Shown in pieces: positions 28,732-36,514 of a DNA stretch of 64,000 nt; positions within the stretch are counted from its first letter, which is position 1; each line of letters begins with the position of its first letter. A program made the position numbers and the translations under genes. Source of the stretch: a virus; IMG/VR virus record IMGVR_UViG_3300045988_112808; one strand, written 5' to 3'. The notes below the pieces were generated by a model. The model was given only the letters and a program-made list of their open reading frames with translations. It was not told the DNA's origin and ran no database searches.

Positions 28732-29107
28732 CGCAATCTATTATATTATTTTTTGAAAGTTCTATTATCGCCTCTTTCAACATCTCCCTTGCTTTATTCT
28801 CATTATCTTCAAACAGGCATACACTGCATGTAGCACCTTTGGAGGGGTAGTCTCTGTAGGCTTCTGCTCTTTCTACAACGTACTCACAACAATAGTCGTG
28901 ACTCATGTCTTTTGCTATACTTATAAAATGATCTTCTCCATCCATCAACACGCAATATTCAGCATCGTTTTCGCATGCAATAACACCTTTGTTTTTTAAA
29001 ATGGATAGCACTTTATTTCCAAAAAGTCCAATATAGACCCATATATCTTTCCCTGCATTTTTGTAAAAAATATCCATTCCTTCTTTGATTGTGACTTTCT
29101 TTTCCAT
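28721..29107 (-). CDS. hypothetical Cys-containing protein (128 aa)
   Basis: ORF. Confidence 0.45.
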   Translation of the reverse strand: MEKKVTIKEGMDIFYKNAGKDIWVYIGLFGNKVLSILKNKGVIACENDAEYCVLMDGEDHFISIAKDMSHDYCCEYVVERAEAYRDYPSKGATCSVCLFEDNENKAREMLKEAIIELSKNNIIDCDGL

Positions 29108-29113
29108 AATCCC

Positions 29114-29464
29114 TTATTTTATATCAGTAATTAAAACATATATTTTAGCAATATCTTCAAGACTCACAGAAGAACGTATATATAGTTTTTCTTCGTACTC
29201 ATATAGAGCGTACCCTTCTTTTATGTCTAATATCTTAATCACATGCTTGCCTCTTTCAAATGGATCCTCAAAGTAGCTCTTATGTTCGTATCTTTGACCT
29301 ACTTTGATTTTGTCAGTTTTCTTCTTCATCTTATAACGCTCTACTGCTCTACCTGTTTTTATGAAAGCTGTCGTGAGTAAGTATAATAAAACTAAATACA
29401 AAAGGATCGCTACTCCACATATTAGATCTTCTTTCATTACACTCCTTTTAAATAGTTGAACCAT
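29114..29464 (-). CDS. hypothetical membrane protein (116 aa)
   Basis: N-terminal hydrophobic helix GVAILLYLVLLYLLTTAFI. Confidence 0.45.
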   Translation of the reverse strand: MVQLFKRSVMKEDLICGVAILLYLVLLYLLTTAFIKTGRAVERYKMKKKTDKIKVGQRYEHKSYFEDPFERGKHVIKILDIKEGYALYEYEEKLYIRSSVSLEDIAKIYVLITDIK

Positions 29465-29603
29465 ATATCCTCCAGCTTCTCCTGAAGCTCAAACGCTTTC
29501 TTGAAATTCCCGCATCTTACAGCAACGTCTCTCATGTATTCTACGTTTATAACTTCCGGATCTTGCCGGTATTTCGTTCTTAACTTTTGAACATCCTCGT
29601 ATT

Positions 29604-30623
29604 TCATCGTTTTATCTTTTTAGACGGATCCCAATCTGAAGAGAAAGGGCATTCGTTTTTGTTATGTAATCCAAAGTCACAATAATAACACAGCGCCGAC
29701 GGGCAGGGTAGCTTGTTTTGCGAAACAGGCTGGCTTAGGGTGGCGCGCCGCTTGCTATACCTGGCTTCTTCTGCTCCCTGGATGTACGCTTGAAATGCTT
29801 TTACACTATTATCTTCAAAATCATACATTTTAGACAAAGTGTCATTTAGCATCTCTATAGATTTTGTTTTACGTTCCTCATCTACCTTAACCTTTTGGTA
29901 CTGTCTGGTCCTGGTAAAGAAATAGATGTTCATATCTGGCATAACTCCGCCATATCTTCTATAGATGTAAAATGAATATATAGGATGCTGTAAATTTGTT
30001 TCCAACTTCTTAGAGTCAAAAACCTTATTACCGGATTTCCAATCTATGACATAATGGTGAACTACGTTCTTGCTTTTTATAGCCAGATGAAGATCCACCG
30101 ATCCTACTATGTACACATGAGTATGAACGTCACCATTTATATCAACAGGCTTAGGAAGACGGTACGGCAGCACAAAATCTTCTTCGACTCCAACTATAGC
30201 GCCGTGTCTAATAAGTTTCTCACAGGGATTAAGATCACTATCAGCTATCATAAACCTATTCCCGTCTTTTTTAAATAGATCTACAATCCAAGCAAGAAGC
30301 TCTCCAGATTGCTTCATGGCTATCATCATATTTTCCGGTGATTGCCAAGGTATGTCTTCCTGGTAAGCATAGTAACTTATTGCTTCTCCAAGGTCTTTAC
30401 CAGAAGGCTGTCTTCCGTTCTTAAAAAAGTATTCCAGTGTCTTATGGATAACCGTACCATAAGACGTAGCTTCTTGTTTTTCCGTAGACCTTTTGCCCTC
30501 TACGTAAGTCTTATACCATTTCATTGGACAGGTAAGAAACGTATCTATCTGGGAATAAGATATGGCAAGACGTTTTACACCATTAAACTCCTTATATAGC
30601 AAATGCGTTTCCGGGACCATCAT
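29604..30623 (-). CDS. Cas4-like/RecB-family PD-(D/E)xK exonuclease with C-terminal Fe-S cysteine cluster
   Basis: SYSQIDTFLTCPMKWY, VIDWKSGN (DxK), QHPIYSFY (QxxxY), C-terminal CPSALCYYC...C. Confidence 0.65.
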   Translation of the reverse strand: MMVPETHLLYKEFNGVKRLAISYSQIDTFLTCPMKWYKTYVEGKRSTEKQEATSYGTVIHKTLEYFFKNGRQPSGKDLGEAISYYAYQEDIPWQSPENMMIAMKQSGELLAWIVDLFKKDGNRFMIADSDLNPCEKLIRHGAIVGVEEDFVLPYRLPKPVDINGDVHTHVYIVGSVDLHLAIKSKNVVHHYVIDWKSGNKVFDSKKLETNLQHPIYSFYIYRRYGGVMPDMNIYFFTRTRQYQKVKVDEERKTKSIEMLNDTLSKMYDFEDNSVKAFQAYIQGAEEARYSKRRATLSQPVSQNKLPCPSALCYYCDFGLHNKNECPFSSDWDPSKKIKR

Positions 30624-30979
30624 AAGTCATTGTCTTTAAATCCTTCCGGGTAATATACGACATACTTCTTACCGTCTTCTGGTGTCATGGCAAACTGCAT
30701 GTAGTTATTACGATTACGATGCTTGCCATCTAATCCTCGCTTCCAATACAGAATCCCATCTATATCCACATAAGACCGTCCGCGTTCGGCTCTAACTACG
30801 TCCGTGTGTAGCAGATACCCGTCGGAAGACACGATCCACACTTTATCCCCTTTGTTTAAATAAGATATTCTTTTTCTTACAACAACCTTTTTCTTATTAT
30901 CTAATGCAAATTCCTCATCGGTCATACTCTTCATCCTCCTCTTCTTCTGTTTCAAAATCAATTCCATAACACTGATCAT
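30620..30979 (-). CDS. hypothetical protein (119 aa; real start may be internal MTDEEF)
   Basis: ORF. Confidence 0.4.
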   Translation of the reverse strand: MISVMELILKQKKRRMKSMTDEEFALDNKKKVVVRKRISYLNKGDKVWIVSSDGYLLHTDVVRAERGRSYVDIDGILYWKRGLDGKHRNRNNYMQFAMTPEDGKKYVVYYPEGFKDNDL

Positions 30980-31142
30980 AATGCTTGGTCAGTTCTTCTG
31001 GTTCTAAATCTTGTCCAAAATCCATGTTAAAAATATCGTAATTAGTAAAGCACTTAAAATCACTGTTCCCGCAGGCAGGAAATCTATGAATGCTGCTTTT
31101 ATTTCTTCAATTAGGCCCAAGTGTAACCTTGGGCCATTGTAT

Positions 31143-32843
31143 TTATTTTTTGTCATCTCCTTTTAATTTCTTTAAAGTATCTGCAATCGGAAGCTGATCA
31201 ATGACTCCCAATGCCGGAGCGACGGTCTTGACAACATTGTTAAGGAAATTACCGGTACTGTTCTGACCGCCGTCAAATACCGTGATATTTCCGAGATTAA
31301 TGTGCTCAAATGCTTTAACCTGTTCTCCAGCAATTTCTTTCCACTGATTAACCATCTTGTACTGGATGGCGATCTGAGGATTGGATTCTGCTGCTTCCAC
31401 CATAGCCTTAAATCCGTCGGCTTCTGCCATTAACGACTTTTTCTTACCTTCGGCTTCTGCCTCCAGCTTCATCTGAATAGCTTTTGCCTCTGCCTCAGCT
31501 TTTGCCAAATGTGCTGATGCCTCAGCCTCAGCCCGGCGTTTGATCTTCTCGGCCTCGGCATCAGCTTGCAAGATAGCCTCTTCCTTCTGGGTTTCAGCCG
31601 GCACAATCTTTTCAGCCTTAAGCGCAGCCTGAACTTTCTTAGCCTTAGCTTCTTCCACTTCTTTGTCTGCAAGCTCTTTTGCTGTTTTTACGGCCGCTTC
31701 CGATTTAACTTTTTCTTCTCCGGCCTTCTTTTCTGATTGAGCTTTGATAATCTGCAATTCTGATACTGACACAGCAACCTCCTTCTGGGCATTGTTGTAT
31801 CCTATAGACGCATTTTTCTCAGCCTCAGCCTTCTTAATCTGAGCTTCAGAGTTTTGTATTGCTATAGCTGCTTCCTTGTCAGCTTCAGCCTTGTTCTTTC
31901 CGACTTCTTCCATCCTTTCAGCCTCGGCTTTATTTACTTCAAGTTCTGCCTTAGATCTTACGATCGCCGATTCCTTGTCGGTTAAAGTTTTTGCGATAAC
32001 CGCAGCCCTATCTCTATCTGCTTGAGCTACACCAATCTGTTTTTCTTTATCGGTTAAAGCCAAAGCTATTTCTTTTTCTTTCTTCGTTTCAGCTACTATT
32101 GTTTCCTTTTCTTTTTCAGTACAAGCAATTTGAATCTCTTGTTCTTTTTTGGTATTAGCCACAGCCGTTTCTTTCTCCTTCTGCTGTACAGCAATCTTAA
32201 TAGCCCCCAGCTTCTCCTGTTCTTCGATATTAGCCTGTGCTTCGTTCAGAGCCCTACTTTCAGCCTCCTTACCAAGGTTCATAATATAACCGGCTTCGTC
32301 TCTAATGTCACTGATGTTGATGTTCAGGAGGTAAAGACCTAACTTGTTAAGCTCGTTATCAATGTTCTTTCTTGCCTTATCCAAAAACTCATCCCTGTCA
32401 GAATTAAGTTTTTCGATTGTCATTTCAGCAATAATCAAACGCATCTGACCGTAAACGATGTCCGTAATAAGATTTTCAGTAGATTCGGTATCCATTCCCA
32501 AAAGTCTTTCTGCCGCATTTTGCATGATCTCTGGATTTGTACTGATAGCTACTGTAATAGTCGTAGGAACATCTACTCTAATATTCTGAGATGACAAAGC
32601 ACCGGTAAGCTTGCAATCTATTTGCATAGGCTCCATTGACAAAACATCATAGCTTTGAATAATAGGCAAGACAAATGCCGCTCCACCATGATATAATTTC
32701 GCCGATTTCTTTTCCCCACCTGTCTTACCATAAACGACCAAGACCTGATTAGGCTTACATCTACGATACCTTGATAAGACTCCGATGATTGTCAAAATAA
32801 TCACTACAGCTAAGATAGCTGACACGTACATGATTGTTGTCAT
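31143..32843 (-). CDS. flotillin-like SPFH/band-7 domain membrane protein (YqiK/FloT-like)
   Basis: N-terminal TM helix, VVYGKTGGEKKSAKLYHGGAAFVLPIIQSYDVLSMEP SPFH core, long EA-rich coiled coil, C-terminal flotillin-like tail. Confidence 0.75.
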   Translation of the reverse strand: MTTIMYVSAILAVVIILTIIGVLSRYRRCKPNQVLVVYGKTGGEKKSAKLYHGGAAFVLPIIQSYDVLSMEPMQIDCKLTGALSSQNIRVDVPTTITVAISTNPEIMQNAAERLLGMDTESTENLITDIVYGQMRLIIAEMTIEKLNSDRDEFLDKARKNIDNELNKLGLYLLNINISDIRDEAGYIMNLGKEAESRALNEAQANIEEQEKLGAIKIAVQQKEKETAVANTKKEQEIQIACTEKEKETIVAETKKEKEIALALTDKEKQIGVAQADRDRAAVIAKTLTDKESAIVRSKAELEVNKAEAERMEEVGKNKAEADKEAAIAIQNSEAQIKKAEAEKNASIGYNNAQKEVAVSVSELQIIKAQSEKKAGEEKVKSEAAVKTAKELADKEVEEAKAKKVQAALKAEKIVPAETQKEEAILQADAEAEKIKRRAEAEASAHLAKAEAEAKAIQMKLEAEAEGKKKSLMAEADGFKAMVEAAESNPQIAIQYKMVNQWKEIAGEQVKAFEHINLGNITVFDGGQNSTGNFLNNVVKTVAPALGVIDQLPIADTLKKLKGDDKK

Positions 32844-32875
32844 AACTTTTAAAATTTAATTGTTGATAAAAAAAA

Positions 32876-33364
32876 TTAGATACTTAGTTCTCCTTCTTCG
32901 TATTTTATATTCACCTTGTCACCGTTTTTGTAAGTTTTTCCAGACAAGCATCTTACTCTCATTTGCTCCTGTCTTCCATTTTTCGAAATATTTACCATAT
33001 AATGATTCTTCCCTGATCTAAATACTATCTCCACCTCTCTGCCATTTAAATCTTCCGGACATTCGTACACCATTTCTTGCTTTAACTTAAGAAGTAACTT
33101 ATATACGTAAAACAAAACGATAAAGAAAAACGACCCTATCACAACCCCTACTAAATGAGAACCCGAAAAGTAGGTAGTCCAGCTATATCCAAGAATAAAA
33201 TGTGTTATACCCTTAAATGATATGATGTCTGATAAAGACATGCTTAAATCAGAAGCATTGTCAATATCCGTATCCAGATCAGATCCTAATATCGACAACA
33301 AAAACTGTATAACAAAAGCAAATGATGCTATTAAAGCCATGCATAAAATTATATCACTTCCCAT
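32876..33364 (-). CDS. NfeD/YqiJ-like membrane protein (TM helices + C-terminal OB-fold)
   Basis: Two hydrophobic helices then beta-rich C-terminus (EVEIVFRSGKNHYMVNISKNG...GDKVNIKYEEGELSI); immediately upstream of flotillin gene as in yqiJ-yqiK. Confidence 0.55.
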   Translation of the reverse strand: MGSDIILCMALIASFAFVIQFLLSILGSDLDTDIDNASDLSMSLSDIISFKGITHFILGYSWTTYFSGSHLVGVVIGSFFFIVLFYVYKLLLKLKQEMVYECPEDLNGREVEIVFRSGKNHYMVNISKNGRQEQMRVRCLSGKTYKNGDKVNIKYEEGELSI

Positions 33365-33605
33365 ACCCTTCTGTTATTATTTTGTAAACAAGATCAGTCA
33401 TATCTTTGATGGTCTCCATATCATAATCAATAATAACAATATTGAATTTTTGTTCCACCATCACTTCCAGTTCAATTTGATCAACAGAATCTAATCCAAG
33501 TTCTTTAAACGTCACATCTTCTTCATGAACTATATCTATTTCCGAATTAAGAAACTGAGTAATAATTATATCCTCTATTATCTTTCTGATTCTTACTTTT
33601 TCCAT
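33354..33605 (-). CDS. acyl carrier protein-like
   Basis: FKELGLDSVDQIELEVMVEQKFNI matches ACP LGxDSLDxVELVMxxEEEF phosphopantetheine-attachment motif; 83 aa acidic. Confidence 0.55.
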   Translation of the reverse strand: MEKVRIRKIIEDIIITQFLNSEIDIVHEEDVTFKELGLDSVDQIELEVMVEQKFNIVIIDYDMETIKDMTDLVYKIITEGYGK

Positions 33606-34306
33606 TGCTTTCTAATTTTGTTAAATAAATACGTTTTTATGTTTTTCAATCGCTCTTTGTCTGTTTCAGAACTTCCGGTAAACAAATAATCCGGATTGCC
33701 TTTAGCTGGCGGCGTAGGCAATTTAGATACGGCAAACAACCAATCCATTTCCTTATTCTTCTTAGACTCCAAATAAGGCTCGGTAGCGATCTTAAATTTT
33801 TCAGCTATTAAGTCAAAGAGCTTTGAATTTTTAAGGTTCATATGAACTGAAAAAGCCTGAGAAGGCGGTTTCCATATGAAGTTGCATAAGCTCATTGTAT
33901 AATCTCCTGACTCTGCTATATAAGATTCCGTTACCTGAAGTATGACCTCTTTCTTGAATGAGGTGTTACCCATAAACCAACACAATCTGGATTCCGCTTC
34001 TTTTCTGCTGACACCTATGTCTTTTGAATATGATTCGTACATTCCTATCATAATCTTCAACGTTTCCAGAACCTCGTCTGTCATCTCCGGTGTCTCTATA
34101 TAATTCACAAAAGACGTTCCTTTGTTGGTCAATCTCATCACGCCTGATTTTAATTTCTCAACCAGGCCAAGCTCTATATACCTCCCAGCATCTTCTTCCG
34201 GCATGGCTTCGATCATAACCGAATCCTTCTGTCTTATGGCAAGAAGATTAGCAAGATCATTAGGAGTCATGTCTGATGCTGCAAGTTGTCTGAAATTGAT
34301 GTACAT
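33593..34306 (-). CDS. hypothetical protein (237 aa)
   Basis: ORF. Confidence 0.5.
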   Translation of the reverse strand: MYINFRQLAASDMTPNDLANLLAIRQKDSVMIEAMPEEDAGRYIELGLVEKLKSGVMRLTNKGTSFVNYIETPEMTDEVLETLKIMIGMYESYSKDIGVSRKEAESRLCWFMGNTSFKKEVILQVTESYIAESGDYTMSLCNFIWKPPSQAFSVHMNLKNSKLFDLIAEKFKIATEPYLESKKNKEMDWLFAVSKLPTPPAKGNPDYLFTGSSETDKERLKNIKTYLFNKIRKQWKK

Positions 34307-34308
34307 TC

Positions 34309-34506
34309 TTAATCAGCTTTAATGAAAATAACATCCTTGTTATCTTGTCTATCAATATGTTCACATGGACCAATAATCATGTCTGTACATGAACAATAAT
34401 TGTATTTTTCAAATATACACCTATCGCATGTATCACCTTCCACACATTTTAATCTTACAAGTCCGGCAGTAAACACTTCTCCTACTTTAAATTCCTTCTT
34501 TTCCAT
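34309..34506 (-). CDS. small Cys-rich protein (65 aa)
   Basis: CxxC...C.C..C pattern. Confidence 0.4.
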   Translation of the reverse strand: MEKKEFKVGEVFTAGLVRLKCVEGDTCDRCIFEKYNYCSCTDMIIGPCEHIDRQDNKDVIFIKAD

Positions 34507-34521
34507 ATTCCCTCCTTGTTT

Positions 34522-35124
34522 TTAACTGTTGTACCCTTCTTTAATAATCGAATTTCTACCGGTAGATACCGACTGTCGAAGATCGTCATGTACAGAATCT
34601 ACCGTAGAATACTTGTTTCTGGTTGTAAAAATCACTTCCAGCATCTCCTTGTAATCACCTAAAGCTACTTCGTATCTCGGATCTACTTTGGCTTTTCTTT
34701 CAGCCTCGGCATTACTTTTAGCCAGTTCTCGATCAAGAAGATCTTCTTTGATTCGGTCAGCAATCATATCAAGTTCTTTTTTAATAACTTCTCCTGCTGC
34801 CCGAAGTTGACCTTCTACGTCACCAAGCTGGTCTTGGACGGTTCCTATTTCTTTCTTTAGACGATCGTATTCGTTAATCATACCCATATCACCAGCATAG
34901 CCAGAAAAGTCCTTGATTATTCTGGTTCCTTCTTTAAGGAGCTCAATAACTCGTCTTTTACGTTCTCTGCTTATTAAAGACGGAAGACGATAATTCATAT
35001 CCGCCACCGCCTTATCATGTATGGAGTTGATTAAAAACATCTCTCTTTCATCCCCTGCAAACTCAGTAAGAACCAAAAGGAACTTACTTATCAGGTATTC
35101 GTTTTCTTCTACTGTTAGTCTCAT
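34522..35124 (-). CDS. hypothetical coiled-coil protein (200 aa)
   Basis: ORF. Confidence 0.5.
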   Translation of the reverse strand: MRLTVEENEYLISKFLLVLTEFAGDEREMFLINSIHDKAVADMNYRLPSLISRERKRRVIELLKEGTRIIKDFSGYAGDMGMINEYDRLKKEIGTVQDQLGDVEGQLRAAGEVIKKELDMIADRIKEDLLDRELAKSNAEAERKAKVDPRYEVALGDYKEMLEVIFTTRNKYSTVDSVHDDLRQSVSTGRNSIIKEGYNS

Positions 35125-35139
35125 GGTTCTTATTTTTTT

Positions 35140-36267
35140 TTAATACAATGACTGTTCTTCTTTTGTCTCTTGTTCCTGATTGTCCGTAACGTCTTCCACA
35201 GTATAGAGCTTAGGCGGCGTCGGCGGCTGGTTGGGGTTCACGAACTTCGTCCCGCCCTCCCCGTACATCCATCCATGTCCCGGCAGTATCTCTGGGTGGA
35301 TTGTATTAGTAAGCTCTTCCATACTAACTTGCCTTACCTTCAGTATATGATGAAACACAAGTCCGGCTGTCCTGAATGATGTTTTGTTTTCAGTTTTAAA
35401 CCTATCAAGAGTCTGATACCAATCTTTCCCAAATATCATATACTTATCCAGCCCGTACCTACGAGGATTGTGCAAACCTATCATTAACGTACATAACTGA
35501 CCCAGCGTATCAGATTGGTAAAAATCAGAAAGACGCGGAGGTTGCTCTTGTGGGCTTTTTATCCTTCCTTCTATCTCTCTGTTGAATTGGGATATGATGA
35601 GGAAAAATATGTTTTTATATACTAATTTAGCTTCGTTCATAACCGCCACCAAATCATCTATAGCCGACTTAGGATCTAATCCCATTCTTTTTATCAAAGC
35701 AATATGATCGACTTTAAATATTATAAGACGTTTGTCTTTGTGTTTGGTAGCTATATGATACACAGCCGCCTCAAACTCTTTTACCGTACACGGAGCATCG
35801 ATGTATATTATATTATTCCTGATTTCACCTTGAAGGATTTCAAACATCCTCATCTCTTCTACTGTATTAGAATCTTGCCTTCTTAATATTTCAGGAGCTC
35901 GCTTTTTCATATCTTGGCTCATTCTACGAAGAAGAAGATCTTGAGGATTCATTTCGAACTCGCAATTAACAAGAAAATAATCTTCTGCTTGCGGGTTGAT
36001 CATCGGATTCATCACATTTTCCAATATCTTTTGGGCCACATACGATTTACCTACAGATGGCCGGGCTCCTATGGCAATAGCGTGCTGAGGAAAAATACCT
36101 CCAAGCAAAGCCTCATCAATATAATCGTATCCGGTTTTAGCGGGGATAGGCTCTCCCCGCCTGTATTTCAAGATATTCTCATACGCCTCTTCCATAACCT
36201 GTTTAGAGGTTTTGAATATCCTTCTTATATCTATTTTATTTTTCAGATCCTCTTGCATTTTTGTCAC
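35140..36267 (-). CDS. DnaB-like replicative helicase (RecA-like C-terminal domain)
   Basis: Walker A AIGARPSVGKSYVAQ, Walker B-like IIFKVDHIALI. Confidence 0.55.
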   Translation of the reverse strand: MTKMQEDLKNKIDIRRIFKTSKQVMEEAYENILKYRRGEPIPAKTGYDYIDEALLGGIFPQHAIAIGARPSVGKSYVAQKILENVMNPMINPQAEDYFLVNCEFEMNPQDLLLRRMSQDMKKRAPEILRRQDSNTVEEMRMFEILQGEIRNNIIYIDAPCTVKEFEAAVYHIATKHKDKRLIIFKVDHIALIKRMGLDPKSAIDDLVAVMNEAKLVYKNIFFLIISQFNREIEGRIKSPQEQPPRLSDFYQSDTLGQLCTLMIGLHNPRRYGLDKYMIFGKDWYQTLDRFKTENKTSFRTAGLVFHHILKVRQVSMEELTNTIHPEILPGHGWMYGEGGTKFVNPNQPPTPPKLYTVEDVTDNQEQETKEEQSLY

Positions 36268-36514
36268 CTTTCGTATCCGATTTGGATCCCCTATTAGCTT
36301 TTACTGATTTATACCTAAGACCGTTCTTGGTATGAGAACAATCCTTTCCTTTTCTCCAGCCCTTACCCTTCTTCTTGTCCGTTTCGTAGTTTTTACGACC
36401 AAGCTCTCGGCGTTTGGCTTTCTGTTCCGGTCTGGCATTTATCTCCTTGTCCTTTTTAGCCTTTTTCTTCCTGGCTTCGGGATGAGTCCTGTAGTACTCT
36501 GTCGATCTACCCAT
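36236..36514 (-). CDS. highly basic small protein (92 aa)
   Basis: Lys/Arg ~40%; overlaps upstream gene end. Confidence 0.35.
   Translation of the reverse strand: MGRSTEYYRTHPEARKKKAKKDKEINARPEQKAKRRELGRKNYETDKKKGKGWRKGKDCSHTKNGLRYKSVKANRGSKSDTKGDKNARGSEK

Follow-up and report, generated by a model that had tools for sequence, protein, structure and literature searches.

A host-type NfeD-like/flotillin gene pair in the replication block of an epsilon crAss-like phage

The locus and its proteins

The stretch of viral DNA analysed here (64,000 nucleotides, nt; IMG/VR record IMGVR_UViG_3300045988_112808; hereafter the window) carries three consecutive open reading frames (ORFs) on the minus strand at 31143-33605, which encode a flotillin, an NfeD-like membrane protein and a small protein of the acyl carrier protein (ACP) family (Table 1). 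A preliminary description, made from the sequence alone, had reported such a trio, and its placement of the ORFs and the peptides quoted in it agree with the ORF list. Its statement that the genes overlap holds for the ACP gene and the 162-residue ORF, which share 11 nt, but not for the flotillin gene, which is set apart from the latter by a spacer of 32 nt; the 3′ end of the flotillin gene is overlapped over 14 nt by a 50-residue ORF. Tight overlaps of this kind are usual across the whole block. The supposed phage source is borne out by the surroundings: the 7.5 kb region 29000-36500 shares 97.5% identity with OR575929.1, the complete genome of phage csAssE-Sib, and the trio is embedded in a replication/early block with a DnaB-like helicase, a PD-(D/E)XK exonuclease and, further along, a primase. 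csAssE-Sib is a 151-kb epsilon crAss-like phage from the human gut (PMC11054128). The order 237-residue ORF, ACP, NfeD-like protein, flotillin and small ORF is kept in a second, diverged phage lineage (contigs of ~150 kb, flotillin 82% identical) and in a variant whose flotillin has a shorter coiled coil and is 481 residues long.

Table 1. Positions in the window of the flotillin locus and of the features beside it
Feature	Position	Strand	Basis or remark
Flotillin, 566 aa	31143..32843	-	Band_7 and Flot Pfam matches
NfeD-like flotillin partner, 162 aa	32876..33364	-	Predicted fold and gene context
ACP-like protein, 83 aa, acidic (pI 4.3), LGLDS motif (Ser40)	33354..33605	-	PP-binding match
50-aa ORF, C-terminal hydrophobic helix	31004..31156	-	ORF list; hydrophobic windows 19-50
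237-aa ORF	33593..34306		Overlaps ACP start; no family match
Present/absent segment, 1,841 bp: whole flotillin gene and most of the 50-aa ORF	31032..32872		blastn of flotillin-less IMG/VR loci

The largest protein had been called a flotillin, and profile searches place it there well above the gathering scores, with Band_7 (PF01145) matched over residues 30-211 (E 7.6e-26, 91.7 bits against 23.6) and the C-terminal Flot domain (PF15975) over residues 450-559 (E 9.4e-10, 39.1 bits against 27). A Glu/Ala/Lys-rich coiled coil (residues ~212-449) lies between the SPFH and Flot domains, and an N-terminal membrane anchor is predicted from 19-residue windows above 1.6 on the Kyte-Doolittle scale over residues 1-28, followed by RYRRCK. 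The NCBIfam FloT equivalog NF058507 is reached with an E-value of 1.3e-42 but at 146 bits against a cut-off of 700. As judged by its sequence, the flotillin identity is secure, and the protein is a member of the flotillin family rather than an orthologue of Bacillus subtilis FloT. Relatives collected in the homologue search range from 408 to 659 residues, and the longest ones checked (622 and 659 residues) are bacterial; among the phage copies the variation apparently consists largely of in-frame indels in the coiled coil, as in the 481-residue variant, which lies in an otherwise normal locus, and a tandem-repeat search found no DNA repeat that accounts for it.

The preliminary description had also drawn a line from this protein to HflK/HflC and the protease FtsH. 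The HflK/HflC-FtsH system of Escherichia coli resembles it in having the fold of the SPFH superfamily and, in general terms, as a membrane scaffold or cage, but HflK and HflC belong to another subfamily, face the periplasm, form a hetero-oligomer of two paralogues and have neither a Flot domain nor an NfeD partner. In an NCBIfam scan at E ≤ 1 no HflK or HflC model matched the phage SPFH protein, the FloT model alone scoring, and the locus has a single SPFH gene with an NfeD-like partner instead of two SPFH paralogues. No connection of the pair to FtsH was found, and what is left of the proposed link is an analogy.

The middle protein had been described as a two-helix membrane protein with a C-terminal NfeD-type barrel. 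Two segments (residues 1-30 and 65-94) are indeed strongly hydrophobic; an AlphaFold model, however, has helices at 2-27, 50-67 and 70-94, of which the additional one at 50-67 is less hydrophobic than the other two. In this model, the mean predicted local distance difference test score (pLDDT) is 85.7, and a disordered acidic loop is followed by a β domain at residues 110-161 with pLDDT >90. The model was built on a 69-sequence alignment from a search of representative sequences, as AlphaFold2 (AF2) run on six near-identical sequences gave a pLDDT of 53. The β domain is predicted to be a five- to six-stranded, OB-like barrel (residues ~110-161), which matches solved NfeD domains (PDB codes 3cp0, 3wwv, 2k14 and 8z5g) at the level of the fold; Foldseek against the PDB returned generic OB folds only.

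The Pfam NfeD (PF01957) and YqiJ models match neither the phage protein nor its two Bacteroidaceae homologues even at E ≤ 10, and the 162-residue protein finds nothing in Pfam (E ≤ 10), NCBIfam, PHROGs or PADLOC. BLASTP against E. coli YqiJ gave no match, hhalign gave a weakly collinear alignment with it (E 0.027), and a word-indexed homologue search returned near-identical phage copies only. A profile search of 1.84 billion representatives places the protein in a family of 155-185-residue proteins (231 representatives), two of 71 members of which match PF01957 (best 6e-5); the family profile also reaches the whole C-terminal domain of YuaF, with a non-significant E-value of 0.24. A viral homologue in BFVD, 35% identical, is named 'NfeD-like C-terminal domain-containing protein'. 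The gene lies directly upstream of, and co-oriented with, the SPFH gene, as it does in the second phage lineage. The predicted fold and this gene context lead us to regard the middle protein as NfeD-like, although the sequence models of the family do not match it, and the earlier assignment stands in that form.

The region between the first two helices (residues 28-56) carries a family motif, an acidic Asp-x-Asp-x-Asp run followed by SFKG..HF; Lys51, Gly52, Gly59 and Gly77 are invariant in the family alignment and Asp35, Ser49, His55 and Phe56 nearly so. This acidic loop, modelled by AF2 with low confidence, is a possible candidate for binding a metal or a lipid headgroup.

The third protein belongs to the ACP family, as had been proposed. 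It matches PP-binding (PF00550; E 6.8e-6, 26.7 bits against a gathering score of 20.8), PHROG 5934 'acyl carrier protein' (E 2.1e-8) and, in phmmer, many solved ACPs (best E 7.7e-6). Ser40, in the LGLDS motif, is the counterpart of Ser36 of E. coli AcpP in an alignment; it is kept both in 71 close copies and in the second phage lineage, where overall identity is 38%. Since all NCBIfam ACP equivalogs are missed (best 30.3 and 28.5 bits against cut-offs of 71 and 70.45), the protein is, by these comparisons, one of ACP fold but not an orthologue of the housekeeping AcpP. Residues 41, 43, 47 and 48, on the predicted helix II recognition surface, are highly variable, the adjoining Asp39-Ser40 being constant. 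The gene is disrupted by premature stops or frameshifts in five of the 71 copies (Q43*, E22* twice and two length changes); stop-codon recoding, which occurs in some crAss-like phages, might bear on the stops. Among the annotated genes of the 151-kb relative there is no partner enzyme, be it a phosphopantetheinyl transferase, an acyl-ACP synthetase or the product of a lipid-metabolism gene; for phosphopantetheinylation the host AcpS could serve.

Origin of the pair and selection on it

Chromosomal flotillins of many Bacteroides and Phocaeicola species align with the phage flotillin along its entire length, at 63-66% identity. Directly upstream of these lies an ORF of 165-177 residues that is a full-length homologue of the NfeD-like protein (35% identity, E 9e-30, and 40%, E 2e-37, for two host homologues). 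The homologue takes this position in 31 of 33 bacterial loci. The earlier view that NfeD-SPFH pairs are a conserved type of bacterial operon is supported, and it is this type that the phage pair copies. In the chromosomal operon (for instance Bacteroides xylanisolvens XB1A, L012:4471-6641, and Phocaeicola vulgatus, L019:4430-6689) the two genes are arranged and oriented as in the phage, with collinear full-length homology and the same domain layout, its flotillins being 543-566 residues long. The phage copy differs in that the ACP gene overlaps its 5′ end and the 50-residue ORF its 3′ end, the hosts having neither, in lying inside a replication block and in a flotillin that is polymorphic for presence.

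Neighbour-joining trees of the two proteins each group both phage lineages in a single clade, next to a Bacteroides-type and a Phocaeicola clade. Given these trees, the host identities and the gene order in 31 of 33 loci, the simplest reading of the sequences is that the NfeD-like/flotillin operon was captured as a unit, once and long ago, from a Bacteroidaceae-type host by an ancestor of the epsilon crAss-like phages. A recent host capture, which the preliminary description had suggested checking by phylogeny, is at variance with 63-66% identity and with a clade of the phage copies' own; as far as sequences can date it, the capture is not recent.

Comparison of the two phage lineages shows saturation at synonymous sites in every gene compared except the 50-residue ORF, and amino-acid identity is 82% for flotillin, 78% for DnaB, 78% for the exonuclease, 62% for the NfeD-like protein and 38% for the ACP. 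Among close relatives the ratio of nonsynonymous to synonymous substitution rates (dN/dS), pooled against one reference genome and phylogenetically non-independent, is 0.038 for flotillin, 0.043 for the NfeD-like protein, 0.052 for the exonuclease, 0.076 for DnaB and 0.376 for the ACP. Ratios of ~0.04, together with a flotillin identity between lineages at least equal to that of DnaB, argue that flotillin and its partner are under strong purifying selection and are maintained as functional proteins.

The ACP follows a different course. No homologue of the ACP, of the 50-residue ORF or of the 237-residue ORF was found within ~5 kb at the 33 bacterial loci, the queries for the ACP being the phage protein, its second-lineage counterpart and E. 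coli AcpP. Because of this, of its differing evolutionary rate and of its retention where the flotillin gene is deleted, the simplest reading is that the ACP gene is a separate, fast-evolving phage gene whose link to the borrowed pair is one of position only. The earlier picture of ACP, NfeD and flotillin as one inherited unit is contradicted by the same evidence (dN/dS 0.38 against 0.04).

A working three-gene operon would go further, with the ACP giving the scaffold an acyl- or phosphopantetheine-linked function and the SPFH protein controlling host FtsH as HflK/C do. In favour of this, the three genes stand side by side in one orientation, their start/stop overlaps are kept in two phage lineages and the ACP serine is invariant in the copies examined; flotillins of B. 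subtilis have been linked to FtsH. We nevertheless consider such an operon very unlikely, as tight overlaps are general in the block, an ACP is missing from every one of the bacterial homologous loci, its rate is quite different and its gene sometimes disrupted, the 151-kb relative has none of the partner enzymes named above among its annotated genes, and the SPFH protein is of the flotillin type and not HflK/C. The ACP is moreover kept upon loss of the flotillin, and two genomes have lost the ACP and kept the flotillin.

Presence and absence of the flotillin gene

Pattern matching in IMG/VR found 163 contigs for flotillin relatives against 212 for DnaB. A survey of the polymorphism, anchored on DnaB instead of flotillin to guard against bias, covered 76 informative IMG/VR loci with DnaB identity of at least 98%. 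The whole block is intact in 48 of them; 20 lack the flotillin gene and the 50-residue ORF but keep the ACP and NfeD-like genes, and eight carry other deletions, with differing endpoints, in the ACP-to-flotillin block. In 14 of the 20 flotillin-less loci, blastn joins window position 32873/32871 directly to 31031/31034, with 3-6 nt common at the junction; the remaining six have the same upstream breakpoint, which lies 3 nt past the stop codon of the NfeD-like gene, and extra or replaced sequence just downstream. The other alleles join 32620 to 30987, or 32997, 33423 or 32765 to 30968 via 216-363 nt of unrelated sequence; one has an internal flotillin deletion (32786 joined to 31754), and another has lost the ACP and the N-terminus of the NfeD-like protein (33579 joined to 33062). 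Two genomes are without the ACP yet retain the flotillin, and further deletions are seen as fusion proteins in the protein database. Each of the 20 flotillin-less genomes, which represent many haplotypes, has kept an undamaged NfeD-like ORF.

Presence and absence combined with intact selection thus make the module accessory rather than core: it is constrained where present, has been lost repeatedly and is absent or damaged in about one third of the genomes of the species. Such losses might be taken to mean that the genes are a functionless passenger, hitch-hiking host DNA on its way to being lost, since deletions of various sizes are frequent in natural genomes and the length of the coiled coil varies as widely as described above. 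We find this scarcely credible, and the selection analysis largely refutes it: dN/dS is ~0.04 for both genes, the flotillins are 82% identical despite saturated synonymous sites, the gene order is the same in two diverged lineages and the reading frames are intact in most genomes.

The same pattern may be viewed as that of a conflict module, an accessory 'moron' under fluctuating selection, in which the pair would block superinfecting phages or shield the membrane from abortive-infection effectors. Many independent deletion alleles in an otherwise conserved block are typical of conflict genes, and the gene is under strong purifying selection where it is present. Repressor and antirepressor genes occur in epsilon crAss-like phages (PMC11054128), so that carrier states are conceivable, and SPFH proteins have been tied to membrane-stress responses (PMC8581546). 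The genes, however, lie within the replication block and not in a recognizable moron island, no PADLOC defence model is matched among the proteins, and comparison revealed no link to a defence or exclusion system; on balance this explanation seems unlikely.

Several relatives have, beside window position 30968, ~216-420 nt of unrelated DNA in place of the sequence just downstream of the flotillin block. The replaced region touches ~30968-31031, near a 119-residue ORF (30620-30979), which suggests a second small variable cassette next to that of the flotillin.

Regional divergence and a possible role

Divergence between phage and host is unevenly distributed along the flotillin. The SPFH domain is 76-79% identical between phage and host (82% between Bacteroides and Phocaeicola) and the Flot domain 83-86% (74%), whereas the proximal coiled coil (residues 212-330) is only 31-33% identical (66% between the two host genera). 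With the NfeD-like partner at 35-40% identity to the host protein, the alignments thus concentrate the divergence in the proximal coiled coil and the partner. In Staphylococcus aureus, flotillin oligomers are stabilized by the OB domain of NfeD, which binds where the flotillin coiled coil begins (PMC11222466). As the two most diverged parts of the phage pair correspond to the site of this docking, their joint divergence suggests, by inference only, a co-evolved, phage-specific docking interface.

These observations, in combination with homology to FloA-NfeD of S. aureus (PMC11222466) and to QmcA-YbbJ (PDB code 8z5g), lead us to propose that the pair is a two-gene NfeD-like/flotillin scaffold module, copied once from the host, that supplements or re-tunes host membrane microdomains, a proposal that we consider fairly probable. 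During infection, the N-terminal hydrophobic segment of the flotillin would insert into the host inner membrane; oligomerization, mediated by the coiled coil and the C-terminal Flot domain, would then build a scaffold on the cytoplasmic side. Helices of its own would hold the NfeD-like protein in the membrane, and its OB-like barrel, lying in the cytoplasm, would dock onto the proximal coiled coil and thereby stabilize the oligomer. In this manner the phage may add to or re-tune the flotillin microdomains of the host, which would stabilize membrane proteins and preserve membrane integrity under stress, and the outcome may be a conditional fitness benefit while the infected cell is exploited.

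Several points weigh against this proposal. Retention of the NfeD-like gene without the flotillin would be unexpected if its sole role were that of partner to the phage flotillin; the start/stop overlap of the ACP and NfeD-like genes, conserved in both lineages, leaves room for co-expression and a functional link; and the dN/dS values carry the non-independence given with them above.

The first of these points fits another explanation, in which the main target of the phage proteins is the flotillin of the host. The host-like SPFH and Flot domains would allow the phage flotillin to co-assemble with it, and the diverged NfeD-like protein would bind host or mixed assemblies and alter their client set or stability, so that host microdomains are redirected or poisoned and not simply increased in number. 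The NfeD-like protein, intact in 20 of 20 flotillin-less genomes, would there have a role independent of the phage flotillin, and the Flot (oligomerization) region is more host-like (83-86%) than the two host genera are to each other, the SPFH domain being also close to that of the host at 76-79%. The NfeD-like protein and the proximal coiled coil, which corresponds to the docking segment in S. aureus, are nevertheless the parts most diverged from the host, which argues for a phage-specific pairing, and retention of the NfeD-like gene might merely reflect recent deletions; we regard such a hijacking of host flotillin as improbable. A more elaborate scheme would place an orthogonal phage docking interface, made of the phage's own NfeD-like protein and the re-made proximal coiled coil, on a host-compatible flotillin. 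Such a scaffold could enter or take over host assemblies and recruit membrane clients of the phage's choosing, perhaps to provide an anchor for replication or assembly, or to keep the membrane intact against abortive-infection effectors; the polymorphism would then record an ongoing arms race and the ACP might be a third, rapidly adapting adaptor. This we consider quite improbable.

What bacterial flotillins and their NfeD partners do is a matter of continuing debate, and we know of no experimental study of either in Bacteroidota. One of the most abundant groups of human-gut phages keeps a complete host-type NfeD/flotillin operon under strong purifying selection, and the coexistence, within one species, of genomes that have the flotillin and genomes that lack it amounts to a natural knock-out series for the contribution of the flotillin scaffold during infection. 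This series also bears on which part of the flotillin the NfeD partner reads, for which the divergence points to the proximal coiled coil.

Studied bacterial pairs of a short NfeD and an SPFH protein, NfeD-FloA of S. aureus, YuaF-FloT (YuaG) of B. subtilis and YqiJ-YqiK and YbbJ-QmcA of E. coli, likewise have the gene for an OB-barrel membrane protein upstream of that for an SPFH protein, and YqiK and FloT share the architecture of the phage flotillin (SPFH domain, EA-rich coiled coil and Flot domain). Similarity to them is remote, however, the phage flotillin being 23% identical to YqiK, and none of them is carried by a phage. In a collection of 50,697 deposited phage genomes, this flotillin, the NfeD-like protein and the ACP occur in csAssE-Sib only; just one further isolated phage, the T5-like Vibrio phage KIT04, has a flotillin. 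Its 473-residue 'flotillin family protein' (LC487410.1 27313-28734) is ~30% identical over half of the phage flotillin and branches elsewhere, from which we conclude that, on sequence grounds, it was acquired independently; an 82-residue ORF precedes the KIT04 gene. SPFH/Band 7 ORFs have also been reported, as Pfam matches only, in the T4-like phages 44RR, Aeh1 and RB43, and PHROG 200 is likewise a phage SPFH group; the locus described here comprises the whole operon of the host type. Authors who described another phage genome remark that why it should carry an SPFH gene 'remains unclear' (PMC13239085).

Part of the locus was already on record, as the preliminary description had allowed for. 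The flotillin and the ACP are annotated in GenBank entry OR575929.1 and in a supplementary table of PMC11054128, which lists them as ORF140 and ORF142, with ORF141 between them as 'hypothetical'; the text of that paper mentions neither flotillin nor ACP, and the NfeD-like identity is unrecognized there. A literature search on crAss-like phages with flotillin or SPFH found no paper linking them. The present analysis adds the NfeD-like assignment, the joint capture of the pair from Bacteroidaceae in its simplest reading, the exclusion of the ACP, the selection figures, the regional divergence and the presence/absence polymorphism. The pair is a phage-borne member of a known operon type and not a new kind of system, and the practical gain is modest: one annotation as 'hypothetical/transmembrane protein' can be corrected to NfeD-like.

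The ACP resembles the phage ACPs of PHROG 5934 ('moron, auxiliary metabolic gene and host takeover') in being a small acidic PP-binding fold with an Asp-Ser site, and differs from them in its fast evolution, its variable helix II residues and its lack of annotated partner enzymes. A tblastn search (E ≤ 1e-3) of the 50,697-genome phage collection found relatives of it in csAssE-Sib alone, and a word-indexed homologue search returned near-identical phage copies only. The size of the 237-residue ORF upstream had raised the idea of a phosphopantetheinyl transferase; this was dropped, as no family or PDB match and no motif were seen.

The 50-residue ORF, a tail-anchored membrane ORF, is absent wherever the flotillin is cleanly absent. 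It has no family match in Pfam or PHROGs and no homologue at the bacterial loci; in the second phage lineage the same position is taken by an ORF of 52 residues with 34% identity. It may be a phage-specific fourth component.

Near the locus, scans for sigma-70-type promoters, terminators and a Bacteroides-type promoter pattern yielded no signal above the chance level. In a composition profile of the whole window, GC and AT skew change sign at ~22 kb, which coincides with the point where plus-strand structural genes give way to the minus-strand replication/early block holding the flotillin pair. In OR575929.1 (region 123531-125272), a 'hypothetical protein' coding sequence upstream of the DnaB-like helicase overlaps the helicase by ~140 nt as annotated, and the helicase start differs from that of the GTG-start ORF in the window (35140..36267); the mismatch is probably a discrepancy in start-codon annotation.

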